Origin: Trueperaceae bacterium
Lineage (GTDB): Bacteria > Deinococcota > Deinococci > Deinococcales > Trueperaceae
Assembly (NCBI GenBank): GCA_965215565.1
Contig: CBDCDZ010000004.1
Coordinates: 2,848,001 to 2,912,000, forward strand
Length of the DNA: 64,000 bases
Direction: 5' to 3'
The notes under the pieces were generated by a model. The model did no database searches. It was not told where the DNA came from and saw only the letters and a list, made by a program, of their open reading frames with translations. The first letter of the stretch is position 1. Every line of letters starts with the position of its first letter. The position numbers were made by a program, and so were the translations under genes. Shown here piece by piece: positions 1,400 through 49,347 of this stretch.

Positions 1400-1510
1400 T
1401 AGCAGTTCCACGACACACTGAGACAGTTGAACGCAGGTATCATCTCTTAAAGTGCGTGCTAAACAGCGTTTCACAAAGTGAGAGTGTCTCTGACCAGATG
1501 ATACCTGCTA
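1400..1510 (+). mobile_element. 111-bp MITE-like repeat copy R1 (no insertions)
   Basis: TAGCAGTTCCACGACACACTGAGAC...CGCAGGTATCATC...AAGTGCGTGCTA...CCAGATGATACCTGCTA. Confidence 0.85.
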
Positions 1511-1736: not shown

Positions 1737-1847
1737 TAGCAGTTCCACGACATACTGAGACAGTTGAGCGCAGATATCATCCCCCGAAGTGTGTGCTAGA
1801 CTGTTCATTTCTCGCTAAGGGTATCTCTGACCAGATGATACCTGCTA
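1737..1847 (+). mobile_element. 111-bp repeat copy R3 (no insertions)
   Basis: Same ends and motifs as R1, same length. Confidence 0.85.
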
Positions 1848-5266: not shown

Positions 5267-5564
5267 TTACTTCATAAACTCCTTCGTCGTTTATTCCGTT
5301 ATCACCGGAATCCGTACTTGTTTCTACTCGCTGGAGAGTCCTCAACTGGGCGTATCATGCCGCTATAAATACCCGCCGCGTTCATTTGAAGATGCTACCT
5401 CCAGTTGAAGACTCTTTGCTCGGGATTAAACACGCGATAAAGTCGCGTGTTTAACCGGAAAGGGTATGAAGCGCCGCAGGTCACGCAGCCCCAAAGTAGA
5501 TAAAAGAGAAAAAGCCGGAGTGCTTAGCTCCAGCTTCCCTCTTTTTAAGAGTATCCAACAGTGT

Positions 5565-5747
5565 CTAGCCGCCGCCCGTCATCATACCGCCCGTCATCAT
5601 ACCGCCCGTCATCATACCGCCCGTCATGTCGCCGCCCGTCATGTCGCCGCCCGTCATCACGCCGCCTGTGTCCTGCGCAAAAGCGAAAACTGCGAGAACA
5701 GTGACGATCAGAATAGAAAGACCGGAGATGCTCAATGTCTTTTTCAT
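5565..5747 (-). CDS. Secreted 60-aa MTGG pentapeptide-repeat peptide
   Basis: Signal peptide ending AFA-Q, then DTGGV(MTGGx)6; AAAGGAG RBS. Confidence 0.75.
   Translation of the reverse strand: MKKTLSISGLSILIVTVLAVFAFAQDTGGVMTGGDMTGGDMTGGMMTGGMMTGGMMTGGG
5570..5672. repeat. 15-bp tandem repeat encoding MTGGx
   Basis: CCGCCCGTCAT(CATA/GTCG) repeated about six times. Confidence 0.9.
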
Positions 5748-6169: not shown

Positions 6170-6661
6170 CTAGTTGCCGCCCGTCATACTACCGCCTGTC
6201 ATACCGCCCGTCTCACTGGAGAGAAGTTGTCCGGCGTTGAGTAAAACCGTGCCGAGGTCCACGAGTTGCGCGACTTGGTCCCCTTCGGCTTGATCGGCGG
6301 CGTCGATAGTCCCTTCGCCGATAGAGGTGAGCAGGCGGCTGACCTCCCCTTGATCTATCGTCTCGGCGGAGAGCGCGCTCTGCAATTCTCCTAACTGATC
6401 GGCTAACGTGTTGAGCGCAGGATTGGACGCGCTGCTCAACGTGTTGCGCCAGCTCTCGATATTGCTCGAGGCGTTTTCTAAAGCGATGTCGGTGAGACCA
6501 CCCTCGAGGAGCGCCGTCGTCTCCGTCACCGACGGGGCGCTGCTATCCCCCGTCATGCCACCTGTCATACCGCCCGTCATGCTACCACCCGTCATCGTAC
6601 CGCCTGTTTGAGCAAAGGCGAGGCAGGTTAATAGAGCCAAAGTTATCGTTAGTATTTTCAT
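6170..6661 (-). CDS. Secreted protein with MTGG repeats flanking a helical acidic domain
   Basis: Signal peptide AFA-Q; MTGG repeats at both ends; paralog of 6942..7466. Confidence 0.75.
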   Translation of the reverse strand: MKILTITLALLTCLAFAQTGGTMTGGSMTGGMTGGMTGDSSAPSVTETTALLEGGLTDIALENASSNIESWRNTLSSASNPALNTLADQLGELQSALSAETIDQGEVSRLLTSIGEGTIDAADQAEGDQVAQLVDLGTVLLNAGQLLSSETGGMTGGSMTGGN

Positions 6662-6682: not shown

Positions 6683-6859
6683 TAGCAGGTCTCAGCCTTT
6701 CTTAGGCGAAGCCTAGCGGATTGGCTAGCTGGACCTCATCTAGTCTGAAACACTCTCACTGTAGAAAACGTTGATGAGTGCCCACTTTTGGAGATGAAGA
6801 CCAACCAAACCTCGTCTGAGAACTGCGGTAATCTGTCTCAGTGTGTTCTGGAACTGCTA
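6683..6859 (-). mobile_element. Repeat copy R4 with three 22-nt insertions (177 bp)
   Basis: TAGCAGGT[44 nt]CTCATCTAGTC ... GATGAA[22 nt]AACTGCG...TGTCTCAGTGTGTTCTGGAACTGCTA. Confidence 0.7.
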
Positions 6860-6941: not shown

Positions 6942-7466
6942 CTAGTTGCCGCCCGTCATACCGCCCGTCGCGCCGCCCGTGACCGTGACGTCCTCGACGT
7001 CGATGTTCGAGAGGCTCGTGCCCGCGTCCGAGAGGAGCGTACCGAGGCTCGCGAGCTGCGCAGCTTCGTCGCCCTGCGCGCCCTCGGCTGCCGCGCTCGT
7101 TCTGCCGCCGAGTTCGGTGAGGAGCAAGCCTACCGAGGTTTGATCGATAGATTCGGTTTGTAGAGTCGCTTTGAGTTCTGCGAGCTGCTCAGCAATCGCG
7201 AGGAGCGCAGGGTCACCCGTACTCTCTAGTCGCATCTGCCATCCCTCAATATTGCTTATCGCTTGTTCGGCGGGTAAGTTCGTGAGACCACCCTCTAACG
7301 CCTCAATCGTGCCGCTAACCGTGGGTGATTCGTCGGTCATCCCGCCCGTCATCATGCCGCCCGTAGCCATGCCCCCTGTCATCGTGCCGCCCGTATCCTG
7401 CGCAAAGGCAGCGCCCATGAATAGTCCTAGAATAAACCCTGAAGTAAGTACGTGAATGAGTTTCAT
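6942..7466 (-). CDS. Secreted protein with MTGG repeats (paralog of 6170..6661)
   Basis: Signal peptide AFA-Q; shared LEGGLT..SNIE.W..L....PAL core; ends MTGGN. Confidence 0.75.
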   Translation of the reverse strand: MKLIHVLTSGFILGLFMGAAFAQDTGGTMTGGMATGGMMTGGMTDESPTVSGTIEALEGGLTNLPAEQAISNIEGWQMRLESTGDPALLAIAEQLAELKATLQTESIDQTSVGLLLTELGGRTSAAAEGAQGDEAAQLASLGTLLSDAGTSLSNIDVEDVTVTGGATGGMTGGN

Positions 7467-30353: not shown

Positions 30354-30550
30354 TGGCAGTTCCAAGACATACTGAGACGGATAAGCGCTTACGGAAGTTT
30401 TGGCAACGCCAAAGGTCTCATTGCGCAGCAATAGCGGGATTTCATCATCGAATGTGCGTGCTAGTTGGGCACTTTTCGCAAAGCGAAACGTTGTTTCATC
30501 TAGTGAGCGTGTTGCTTCGCACAACTTCGTACACTCAAACCAAATGATAC
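30354..30550 (+). mobile_element. Repeat copy R5 with four insertions (24, 24, 23, 21 nt); last 6 nt missing
   Basis: TGGCAGTTCCAAGACATACTGAGAC ... CAAACCAAATGATAC. Confidence 0.75.
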
Positions 30551-30661
30551 AGCAGGTATCATTTGGTTTGGGCCAATCTGAGAAGAGAAAACACGCTCTA
30601 GCGCTCACTTAATTGTGATGATACTTGCGTGATTCACGCTCAGTACTTGTGTTGATTGCTA
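30550..30661 (-). mobile_element. Repeat copy R6 (subfamily with AAGTACTGAGC..GAATCACGCA left arm), tail-to-tail with R5
   Basis: CAGCAGGTATCATTTGGTTTG...GATGATACTTGCGTGATTC...ATTGCTA. Confidence 0.75.
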
Positions 30662-30713: not shown

Positions 30714-30867
30714 TAGCAGTTCCACGACACACTGAGACAGTTGAACGCAGGTGTCATCCCTTAAAGTGTGTGCTAATTACGAAGTTTTCCGCAGGAAACA
30801 GCGTTTCACAAAGTGAGAGTGTGCCTGACGGCGTACTTCGTGCACTCTGACCAGATGATACCTGCTA
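30714..30867 (+). mobile_element. Repeat copy R7 = R1 plus 21-nt and 22-nt insertions
   Basis: Nearly identical to 1400-1510 apart from 30776-30796 and 30823-30844. Confidence 0.88.
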
Positions 30868-32217: not shown

Positions 32218-32502
32218 ATGGCACAAGACAGAGGAAAACGAAGAGGCGGCGGCAAGGATGACCGCAGAGGCGGGCGCGGAAGACGCCGCCCTAAGGTCTG
32301 CCCCTTTTGCACCGGCGAACAAGAAGTGACCGACTACCACGACGCGCGGATGCTGCGCCGCTTCATCTCCGACACGGCGAAAATCTTGCCGCGCCGCCGC
32401 TCGGGAGTATGCGGAAAGCACCAGCGTAGACTCGCGACGACGATCAAGCGGGCGCGGATGTTGGCGATTATTCCGATTACGGAGAAACTGGTGCGCCGAT
32501 GA
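32218..32502 (+). CDS. rpsR: 30S ribosomal protein S18 (Zn-ribbon form)
   Basis: CPFC...KILPRR..CGKHQR. Confidence 0.95.
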   Translation: MAQDRGKRRGGGKDDRRGGRGRRRPKVCPFCTGEQEVTDYHDARMLRRFISDTAKILPRRRSGVCGKHQRRLATTIKRARMLAIIPITEKLVRR

Positions 32503-32548
32503 AGCTCTTAGAGGTATCATCTATGAAGAAGCCTCAGAGGTATCATCT

Positions 32549-35734: not shown

Positions 35735-35866
35735 TAGCAGGTATCATCTGGTTTGAGTGTACGAAGTTGTGCGAAGCAACACGCTCACCGTATAAAACGA
35801 TGTCCAACACGCACATTGTGAGATGATACCTGCGACATTTTGTCTCAGTATGTCTTGGAACTGCTT
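35735..35866 (-). mobile_element. Repeat copy R8 = 111 + 21-nt insertion
   Basis: TAGCAGGTATCATCTGG...GATGATACCTGCG...TGTCTCAGTATGTCTTGGAACTGCT. Confidence 0.85.
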
Positions 35867-38114: not shown

Positions 38115-38243
38115 TAGCAGGTATCATCTGGTCAGCTACACCCTTACTAAAGAGAACATCGTTTCCTTCGGCAAACTTCGTAATTAGCACGCACTCTAGA
38201 TGATATCTGCGAAGAAGTGTAGCAACGATAAGTGGAACTGCTA
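38115..38243 (-). mobile_element. Repeat copy R9 with 21-nt insertion
   Basis: TAGCAGGTATCATCTGGTC...TAGCACGCAC...GATGATATCTGCG...GTGGAACTGCTA. Confidence 0.8.
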
Positions 38244-38626: not shown

Positions 38627-38737
38627 TAGCGATTATCAGAAGTACTGAGCTTGAATCACGCAGGTATCATCACCGAAAGTGCGTGCTAGACGATAGTGTA
38701 TCTCGTGAGATTGGCTCAAACCAGATGATACCTGCTA
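38627..38737 (+). mobile_element. 111-bp repeat copy R10 (second subfamily, no insertions)
   Basis: TAGCGATT...AAGTACTGAGCTTGAATCACGCAGGTATCATC...CCAGATGATACCTGCTA; TA on both flanks. Confidence 0.85.
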
Positions 38738-40933: not shown

Positions 40934-41068
40934 TAGCAAGTATCATAATTACTGGTCTTGAATCACGCAGATATCATCACAATCAAGTGCGTGCTCGTCG
41001 ATGTTCTCCAGAGTGAGATTGGCTCAAACCAGCTCCGAGCTTTGCGAGACAGATTTTGATACCTGCTA
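40934..41068 (+). mobile_element. Repeat copy R11 with ~24-nt insertion in right end
   Basis: Like R10, with CTCCGAGCTTTGCGAGACAGATTT at 41033-41056; TA on both flanks. Confidence 0.8.
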
Positions 41069-48903: not shown

Positions 48904-49347
48904 ATGTCCGACTATCAAGCCCTGCGAGATGAAGTGGATACGCTTAAACGCTCCGTTCAAAGCCTAGAGCAAGGCGAGCGCTTCACGATGCTCGAGAAAA
49001 TCATCGACGCCAACACCCAAGCGGTGCAAGAATTCACTGAGTCGAGCCGCTTTCAGCTCAGCGAGCAGAATCGGCGCATTGAGTCGCTCGAGGTCAAGCT
49101 GAGCGAAGAGCTAAGGCGGATGGGCGATAAGATTGACGCATTGGATGTCAAGCTCAACGGTAAAATTGACGCATTAGAAGTCAAGCTAGATGGTAAAATT
49201 GACGCACTAGAAGCTAAGCTAGACGCCAAAATCGAGAGGTTCAGAACGGATTTAGAGAACAAAATCGCCCACTCGCAGACCGTCATCTTAAGCGCGATTG
49301 CTGCGGTGGGCGTGATTCTAGCGGCGATTCAGATTATTACGGCGTGA
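48904..49347 (+). CDS. Coiled-coil protein with 11-aa repeats and C-terminal TM (DUF1640-like)
   Basis: KIDAL(D/E)xKL(N/D)x repeated three times (33-bp tandem at about 49128-49230). Confidence 0.7.
   Translation: MSDYQALRDEVDTLKRSVQSLEQGERFTMLEKIIDANTQAVQEFTESSRFQLSEQNRRIESLEVKLSEELRRMGDKIDALDVKLNGKIDALEVKLDGKIDALEAKLDAKIERFRTDLENKIAHSQTVILSAIAAVGVILAAIQIITA

Follow-up and report, generated by a model that had tools for sequence, protein, structure and literature searches.

Roughly 21-base folded DNA units placed cleanly in larger repeats of a Trueperaceae genome, and their likeness to SDR5 of Nostoc

Small dispersed repeats (SDRs) of Nostocaceae were reportedly described by Elhai et al. in 2008. 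They are 21-27 nt long and occur nested in one another, in MITEs and in heptamer repeats. Single-strand transposons of the IS200/IS605 type (IS608, ISDra2) carry strand-specific hairpins and insert in a fixed orientation beside a short motif that survives, with stacks possible, by a chemistry that is scarless and hairpin-guided. According to the accessible parts of the respective papers, SDR5 is 21 nt long (PMC13756078) and inserts between bases 3 and 4 of HIP1, GCG^ATCGC, where the caret marks the insertion point (PMC4390886); the SDRs of Nostocaceae are treated also in PMC5861425. The REP/REPIN repeats associated with RAYT proteins (IS200/IS605-type HUH Y1) are described, in the portions of the sources that could be consulted, as very short, extragenic, hairpin-forming, non-autonomous and free of target duplication (PMC3116915, PMC3733652), and their REPtrons may be deleted while the repeats stay (PMC3733652). 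Elements of the IS110 family target repeats, as ISPpu9 does in REPs (PMC12288879, available part). Finally, GCGNAGC/GCGNNAGC mini-hairpins are DNA folds that, by the accessible text of PMC13037366, are stable, nuclease-resistant and poorly bound by SSB.

The stretch of DNA analysed here (the window) comprises 64,000 nt of a Trueperaceae bacterium and corresponds to C4:2848001-2912000 of its 4.49-Mb genome (G000). It contains several copies of a repeat of 111 nt, hereafter the scaffold, some of which carry short inserts (Table 1). Removal of positions 30776-30796 and 30823-30844 from copy R7 (30714-30867, 154 nt) leaves 111 nt that match copy R1 (1400-1510) at 108/111 positions, which bears out a sequence-only reading in which R7 was R1 plus two inserts (111+21+22=154); the sequences of the related inserts that it had noted in copies R9, R8 and R5 were confirmed as stated. 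The first R7 insert is real, but the better register across flank alleles (AG^, GC^, AA^) is 30777-30797, TTACGAAGTTTTCCGCAGGAA; in this copy three registers are equivalent because target and element both carry AA. A search of the window against Rfam returned a single tRNA only.

Table 1. Scaffold copies, micro-inserts and associated repeats. Coordinates are those of the window unless a genome is named.
Feature	Coordinates	Strand	Remarks
R1, empty 111-nt scaffold copy	1400..1510	+	ATT/ATT duplication; 108/111 identical to R7 core
Empty scaffold copy	1737..1847	+	
Scaffold copy whose sites 40 and 99 hold non-family-A inserts	6683..6859	-	
R5, scaffold copy with four inserts	30354..30549	+	right end adjoins next copy; ends from printed sequence
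Family A 24-mer, site 35 of R5	30389..30412	+	
Family B insert (hairpin plus AGCGGGATT tail), site 40 of R5	30418..30441	+	separate micro-element family; coordinates from printed sequence
Family A 23-mer, site 63 of R5	30465..30487	+	
Family A 21-mer, site 88 of R5	30513..30533	-	identical to R8 insert
Empty scaffold copy, TA-flanked subfamily	30550..30661	-	
R7, MITE-like scaffold copy (111 nt) carrying family A at two sites	30714..30867	+	3-nt duplication TAG/TAG; between SulP-family gene and rpsF
Family A 21-mer, site 63 of R7	30777..30797	+	TT-[AC GAA GT]-TT..[TTCC GCA GGAA]; 5' of AC
Family A 22-mer, site 88 of R7	30823..30844	-	TGC-[AC GAA GT]-AC-[GCC GTCA GGC]; 5' of AC on minus strand
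R8, scaffold copy with one insert	35735..35866	-	TTA/TTA duplication
Family A 21-mer, site 88 of R8	35758..35778	+	
R9, divergent scaffold copy with one insert	38115..38243	-	
Family A 21-mer, site 63 of R9	38163..38183	-	earlier register 38164-38184
Empty scaffold copy, TA-flanked subfamily	38627..38737	+	
Scaffold copy filled at position 98 by 23 nt of a different micro-family	40934..41068	+	
IS110 copies	G000:C4 near 638.7k, 681.6k, 1227k, 1291k, 2530k, 3106k, 4136k (L060-L065)		
TTCACG-headed 21-mer loci	G000:C4 3586049 and three others; G001 L051, L053, L055; G002 L126-L128, L132		

The inserts that are the subject of this work, termed family A, are roughly 21-base folded DNA units placed cleanly in larger repeats. 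Their lengths were examined by scanning the repeated DNA of G000 for pairs of flanks that are adjacent in one place and apart in another, tandem-like events being removed. Genome-wide, this gap scan gave 117, 41, 47 and 31 events at 21, 22, 23 and 24 nt, respectively, with no more than 6 events at each of 18-20 nt, 2 at 25 nt and 7 at 26 nt. Side peaks were present at 17 nt (23 events) and 27 nt (38 events), short gaps of 3, 7, 10 and 14 nt accounted for 17-30 events each, and each length between 28 and 80 nt gave at most 15 events. About half of the events of 21-24 nt (117/236) fall inside the scaffold mask. The peak at 21-24 nt anticipated by the sequence-only reading is therefore present both among scaffold copies and in the genome-wide scan, and the distribution is quantised rather than continuous; longer inserts are nested units, for example 43 = 21 + 22 and 52 = 25 + 27. 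Family A itself spans 20-24 nt, 21 and 23 nt being the modal lengths, and nested relatives of 17, 19 and 27 nt are present also. A double hairpin was found in 174/242 gap events of 20-24 nt, and 121 of these 174 have zero-overlap boundaries, with A as the next base in 119; the 22 zero-overlap events that start with G or C are mostly registers shifted by one base. Since the boundaries of these 121 events are unique, the inserts are not accompanied by target duplication, as had been proposed, and the boundary-verified events have no terminal inverted repeats either, such that family A does not resemble a MITE. The motif ACGNAGT followed by a hairpin occurs 167 times in G000 as opposed to 17 and 19 times in two fourth-order Markov genomes, and hence is not due to chance. 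A strict descriptor of the 21-mers has 86 matches in G000, 82 of them before A, and 1 match in the reversed chromosome.

On one strand, the core of the family reads T(N1-2), a first hairpin of 2-3 bp with a GNA or GNNA loop, 0-2 nt, and a second hairpin of 3-5 bp; boundary-verified members start with TT or TG and end at hairpin 2. The ACGAAGT that had been thought common to the family is only the commonest variant of hairpin 1, and what is conserved is the T and the two GNA-loop mini-hairpins on one strand. Among 124 distinct sequences the hairpin 1 loop is GAA in 52 and a three-base GNA in 87, variants besides GAA being GCA, GTA, GGA, GNNA and AAA, while the stem is AC/GT in 87, GC/GC in 15 and AT/AT in 10, with AG/CT and GT/AC also seen. 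Compensatory stems are evident in 31 TG-type 21-mers, where pair 4-10 is GC in 15 and AT in 14, and pair 14-20 is GC in 22 and AT in 6. At least two GNA/GNNA hairpins were found in 60/118 sequences, versus none on the complement and about 1.2 in shuffles; this set was selected by hairpin 1, and the hairpin 2 loop played no part in the selection. Hairpin 2 reaches the 3' boundary in 42/52 cases, exactly in 20 and extending 1-2 nt into the target in 22, and stops short in 10. In the R7 22-mer it stops exactly at the insert boundary, and this position of hairpin 2 explains why the insert ends in C.

To map the targets, 75 boundary-verified family A sequences (up to 2 mismatches) were located at 313 matches in 43 flank clusters, some of which are split nests. 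The base after the element is A in 289/313 (AC in 229, AG in 42; 24/313 exceptions) and the preceding base is free, and identical sequences are present in up to 4 flank clusters. By location, 237 matches are near the scaffold, 26 near AGCAATG heptamers and 50 elsewhere; none of the 313 copies lies inside a long open frame, and chromosomal strand bias is absent. Within the scaffold, where two sites filled in opposite orientations had been described, there are at least four (35, 63, 88 and 103), and opposite orientations do occur, each site being used in one orientation only (35, 63 and 103 forward, 88 reverse). AC makes up 6.5% of scaffold dinucleotides, yet only 3 of 15 consensus AC positions are used, plus one AG, and therefore the target must be more than AC; folding of 36 reconstructed empty targets revealed no single structural position. 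The elements also nest, into GN^A loops and TT^AC heads of other elements and in themselves. Eleven tandem stacks at one ^AC probably represent one or two events. The CTGG^ACGAA site has received ten or more unlike insert types. Strict-descriptor matches that are not before A number 4/86 in G000, and 8/13 and 9/15 in stretches of two sister species (G001 and G002, respectively). Most of these belong to a TTCACG-headed subfamily in GTCA..GAAGG-type palindromes; its 21-mers, with two GNA hairpins and putative boundaries, are situated in palindromes of the form GTCACCCTG..GAAGGGTCTC, and the next base is C or T rather than A.

The scaffold is MITE-like, because it ends in TAGCAG..CTGCTA inverted repeats, because one subfamily has a 3-nt target duplication in 107/140 copies and the other TA..TA in 67/84, and because one copy splits an IS630 pseudogene. 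There are 441 right-end matches, 227 of which pair with a left end; lengths of the paired copies are 110-112 nt in 121/227, 131-136 nt in 38 and 154-160 nt in 18. The alignments of scaffold copies comprised 418 sequences, reduced to 361, 289 and 187 by score, gaps and subfamily, depending on the analysis. As regards an autonomous partner, no transposase is present between unpaired scaffold ends and the ends of multi-copy IS elements, compared by eye, differ; no consensus fold was found in the scaffold apart from an internal inverted repeat. Matches to the scaffold were obtained in 5/61 genomes, namely G000, the sister species G001 and G002, G005 and, weakly, G025. One copy in G002 (L003, G002:C2:851776-851886) is 94% identical to R1, large syntenic blocks being about 79-83% identical. 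This high identity, together with letter-identical inserts between species, reflects either strong constraint or horizontal exchange.

Comparison with Nostoc shows that the likeness to SDRs is stronger than the sequence-only reading had claimed, in that the 21-mers match HIP1 inserts in architecture. In 250 kb of N. punctiforme pNPUN01, GCG-TAGGCGTAGCCCGCCGTAGGC-ATCGC was found twice with the same flanks, and a pattern of T plus two C-GNA-G loops in HIP1 gave 4 exact matches and 1 with one mismatch in the whole 355-kb pNPUN01 record (control 0). With the strict descriptor, the Nostoc stretch yielded 3 matches, each of them before A (control 0), whereas 280 kb of G005 yielded none. The Nostoc inserts are presumably SDR5, since their length and site fit published descriptions. 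They have the same 2+9+1+9 nt layout as TG-type 21-mers of family A such as TGGACGAAGTCATGCGAAGCA; they start with T, contain two C-GNA-G hairpins and have their 3' limit at the base of hairpin 2, a build found in 72/91 TG-type 21-mer matches here. Common to SDR5 and family A are also a length of about 21 nt, many dispersed copies and precise insertion 5' of A without target duplication, and family A further displays the SDR-type structure with compensatory changes and the nesting in itself, in a MITE and in heptamer repeats. The two come from different phyla and differ in their targets, in that SDR5 uses HIP1 (GCGATCGC) whereas 0/43 cluster representatives of family A are at GCG^ATCGC, the Trueperaceae elements instead occupying fixed AC/AG sites in the 111-nt MITE, heptamer repeats and other elements. 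Additionally, family A stems are richer in A/T, TT-headed 21-24-mers are common, and 0/313 copies are in a long open frame. Family A is thus an SDR5-type micro-element in Trueperaceae with non-HIP1 targets, not SDR5 itself. What is new here is the direct agreement in structure with the HIP1 inserts of Nostoc, together with the reading as DNA mini-hairpins; no description of SDR-like elements in Deinococcota was found in the literature searched, and the original SDR paper may already give the mini-hairpin layout or mechanism. In a viral collection, the HIP1-anchored pattern had 20 matches, 5 with all four stem pairs, 3 with three and 12 that look like chance. The fully paired SDR5-like 21-mers in HIP1 are on five viral contigs (L172, L173, L179, L180 and L189), and that of L172 resembles family A hairpins.

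Other systems are less similar. Family A shares with REP/REPIN-RAYT repeats each of the properties listed at the outset, but is without a GTAG or CGTC tag and has two mini-hairpins as opposed to one palindrome; moreover, no REPtron-like gene flanked by family A was found and G001 and G002 gave no Y1 match. Strand-specific hairpins, oriented scarless insertion by a surviving short motif and stacks are shared with IS200/IS605 elements, although family A is far smaller, has no transposase gene and follows no guide-target pairing rule that could be found. As with ISPpu9 in REPs, an IS110 element of G000 parasitises the scaffold at one fixed site, but it is autonomous, 1126 nt long and equipped with a donor sequence of its own, and family A shares neither core nor donor with it.

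Among 41 genomes, the head TTACGNAGTTT is enriched only in three of one genus, G000, G001 and G002, with 155, 90 and 126 occurrences versus 4, 2 and 5 in controls, the count in G005 being 4 (control 1). Stricter patterns identified 3/61 and 2/128 genomes. A scan of genome contigs gave two stretches, from G001 and from one archaeal contig whose match may be chance; the viral collection gave 5 matches, without scaffold context, and metagenomes 12, of which 9 are in scaffold-like context and 3, including the YjeF-gene pair, are possibly chance. R7 had no match among plasmids. In the outgroup G005, where 14 stretches of 20 kb around scaffold matches were examined, 10 of the 11 scaffolds recovered carry no insert and the remaining one is misaligned, for which reason the empty state looks ancestral. 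The family A types at each site are common to G000, G001 and G002 and often letter-identical in G001 and G002, despite syntenic blocks being only about 79-86% identical, which fits a small number of old insertions combined with recombination or with horizontal exchange of entire scaffolds. Nests were seen in one only of the sampled species. Comparison of orthologous sites with G001 and G002, which are distant species (about 0.4 Mb of G001 plus small loci), revealed one complex candidate among 14 listed indels. Contigs from 4 of 9 sequencing runs showed no circle, excision product or within-population allele, although contigs alone speak neither for nor against excision; no direct sign of present movement came from either comparison.

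The sequence-only reading had also noted filled and empty alleles in one window. Both alleles are indeed present, but the pairs do not each represent an insertion event, since scaffold copies recombine. When mapped onto a tree built from 289 cores, the state of site 40 changes 50 times and that of sites 62 and 88 changes 48 times each (76, 66 and 63 on average after shuffling, respectively), and these are not counts of insertions, because scaffold SNP columns are homoplastic, with up to 42 changes, and because insert type is tied to 2-3 bases on the left. Co-filling of the three sites is above chance (r2 0.09-0.16). Given the SNP homoplasy, the left-flank linkage, the co-filling and the types common to sister species, a large part of the filled/empty mosaic is probably due to gene conversion among the scaffold copies. 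Some observations nonetheless speak against a purely passive reading. Beyond 20 nt, linkage of scaffold SNPs to fill state (mean r2 0.013-0.017) is lower than that among the SNPs themselves (0.045, a value inflated by being a maximum over more allele pairs), and some flank haplotypes occur both empty and filled (10 at site 62 and 9 at site 88), with several insert types in 7 and 8 haplotypes, respectively. Copies that are at least 105/111 identical to R1 show many fill combinations over five sites.

On balance, family A is probably non-autonomous mobile DNA of the SDR5 type, about 20-24 nt long, that moves as a folded strand. The element is inserted without duplication or deletion directly 5' of A, usually AC, at a few fixed sites in hairpin-rich repeats, in other micro-elements and in itself. 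In this model it would travel as a folded single DNA strand, in which two stacked mini-hairpins may bring the 5' and 3' ends together in the manner of a nicked dumbbell, and would enter a single-stranded target through strand transfer or through copying and ligation, the function for this step being provided in trans. New sites would be colonised rarely; an insert would then spread with the MITE and be swapped between copies by short-tract recombination, which could generate most filled/empty pairs such as R7/R1. The mover may quite possibly consist of host replication and repair enzymes (a template jump plus ligase), may possibly be an ssDNA transferase of the HUH type, either since lost or missed by the Pfam Y1 model, and is unlikely to be something else. 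The most serious competing account, which we regard as unlikely, is that the elements are relic passengers, i.e. 20-40 old insertions with no present mobility, whose mosaics arise from MITE transposition and gene conversion and whose stems have been tidied by quasi-palindrome correction. The site-specific types common to three species, the linkage of insert type to the left flank, the SNP homoplasy and the failure of the Y1, RT and IS110 searches to find a mover would all fit this account; but it sits poorly with letter-identical elements at unrelated targets, with nests in only one of the sampled species and with the diversity of inserts (at least ten unlike types) at CTGG^ACGAA, a single site, and conserved GNA loops on 2-bp stems would be unexpected from palindrome correction.

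Correlation of the family with HUH/Y1, IS110 or reverse transcriptase genes had been suggested as a route to the mover, but none of the three tracks it. Reverse transcriptase (PF00078) gave no match in G000 and G002, despite their 155 and 126 head motifs, and was rejected on that ground; G001 has four genes. These are near-identical (G001:C1 291528, 2670406, 3430718 and 3475506; frames of 618-637 aa), occur within the genus in G001 only and are probably group II introns. An RNA-mediated route, in which a transcript of the unit would fold and then be returned to DNA by a reverse transcriptase or through RNA-templated repair, would account for the one-strand structure and could draw on these G001 genes, and the GNA/GNNA loops overlap GNRA-like loops in a minority of sequences. 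It is improbable, however, in view of the PF00078 distribution and the absence of strand bias on the chromosome. The GNA-loop fold would, besides, be unstable in RNA. Loop 1 is of the three-base GNA type in 87/124 sequences, a fold that the accessible part of PMC13037366 reports from DNA.

Movement by a known resident transposase, either a Y1/RAYT-like domain or the IS110 element with seven copies in the scaffold, is highly improbable, notwithstanding that IS200/IS605-type chemistry would be scarless and hairpin-guided. The sole Y1 domain of G000 forms part of a restriction-modification protein, into which it is fused, and has other palindromes on its flanks; Pfam Y1 was found in neither G001 nor G002 (96-97% complete), and 11 other genomes of the 41 have Y1 without motif enrichment; Y1/RAYT was rejected accordingly. 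The domain is Y1/HUH transposase-like and lies in frame inside an Eco57I-like protein (L001, G000:C4:3784734-3788051, minus strand; 1322-aa frame), and after it come peptides encoded by the AAGGGGTTGAAACCCCTT palindrome, which has 132 matches genome-wide. As to IS110, 7/7 full, near-identical 1126-nt copies are at one site in the scaffold right end (core TC), next to site 103, and a 92% identical relative occupies the same site in G002, G001 having only a 47% relative. In the non-coding left end there are four guide-like matches, to the left target, the right target, the left donor and the right donor in that order. These segments match the scaffold terminus and the ends of the IS itself, not family A, and family A boundaries revealed neither a shared core nor an IS110 donor sequence; IS110 thus targets the scaffold with a donor of its own and was rejected as mover. 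Tyrosine recombinases are in 5/5 genomes and so are uninformative, and the eight densest family loci, inspected by eye, have ordinary genes alongside and no transposase-like ORF. Separately, a small GIY-YIG nuclease gene of G002 (L105, G002:C10:214214-214426) has CGTC-type palindromic repeats upstream, an arrangement absent beside the GIY-YIG genes examined in G000 and G001. The last alternative, that the long forms came first and the short ones arose from them when extruded hairpins were deleted, is very improbable and largely refuted, since outgroup copies are empty, the 111-nt form is dominant and the same element occupies unrelated sites and both orientations within the scaffold, even though a polymerase could skip a folded dumbbell precisely, some empty alleles may be reversions and family B leaves possible scars (19/202 empty site-40 alleles without A).

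The folded-strand model for family A might be extended to Nostoc, with SDR5 and family A forming one cross-phylum class of mobile DNA of about 21 nt, each a nicked-dumbbell single strand of two GNA mini-hairpins, still active and copied and joined by ordinary host enzymes without a transposase of its own. This extension is speculative and somewhat unlikely; if it is true, no self-propagating DNA unit in bacteria would be smaller, and transposition would have a route that needs no transposase. Family A separates general features (the T start, two DNA mini-hairpins, a boundary at the base of hairpin 2 and insertion before A) from the host-specific HIP1, and supplies exact oligonucleotide substrates for an assay together with matching filled/empty targets. 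The search for the mover is narrowed as well, the family being plentiful in three genomes of one genus but not in sampled relatives, and Y1, RT and IS110 do not track it.

A number of further repeats were encountered. Within the window, 15-nt tandem repeats of low-complexity coding sequence are at 5552-5699, 6172-6607 and 7322-7409, and a 33-nt triple repeat (49125-49223) is inside ORF 48904-49347. Positions 32499-32548, the 3'-terminal 50 nt of the ORF that precedes 32549, including a repeated GAGGTATCATCTATGAA, are skipped by contigs of related organisms in 4/4 sequencing runs compared; this ORF and the next are presumably the rpsR-rplI junction. Family B, a hairpin plus a AGCGGGATT-like tail with 98 tail matches, is found at scaffold sites 40 and 99-101 and swaps the target A for C or T as opposed to inserting cleanly; the site-40 alleles without A mentioned above may be excision scars. 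G025 carries a family B-type insert. Finally, the AGCAATG heptamer repeats of G000:C4 (383 matches of AGCAATGAG) contain a family of 21-23 nt with a CCGTTCGT-like head and one hairpin at CTCA^TTGCT, which itself receives family A elements.
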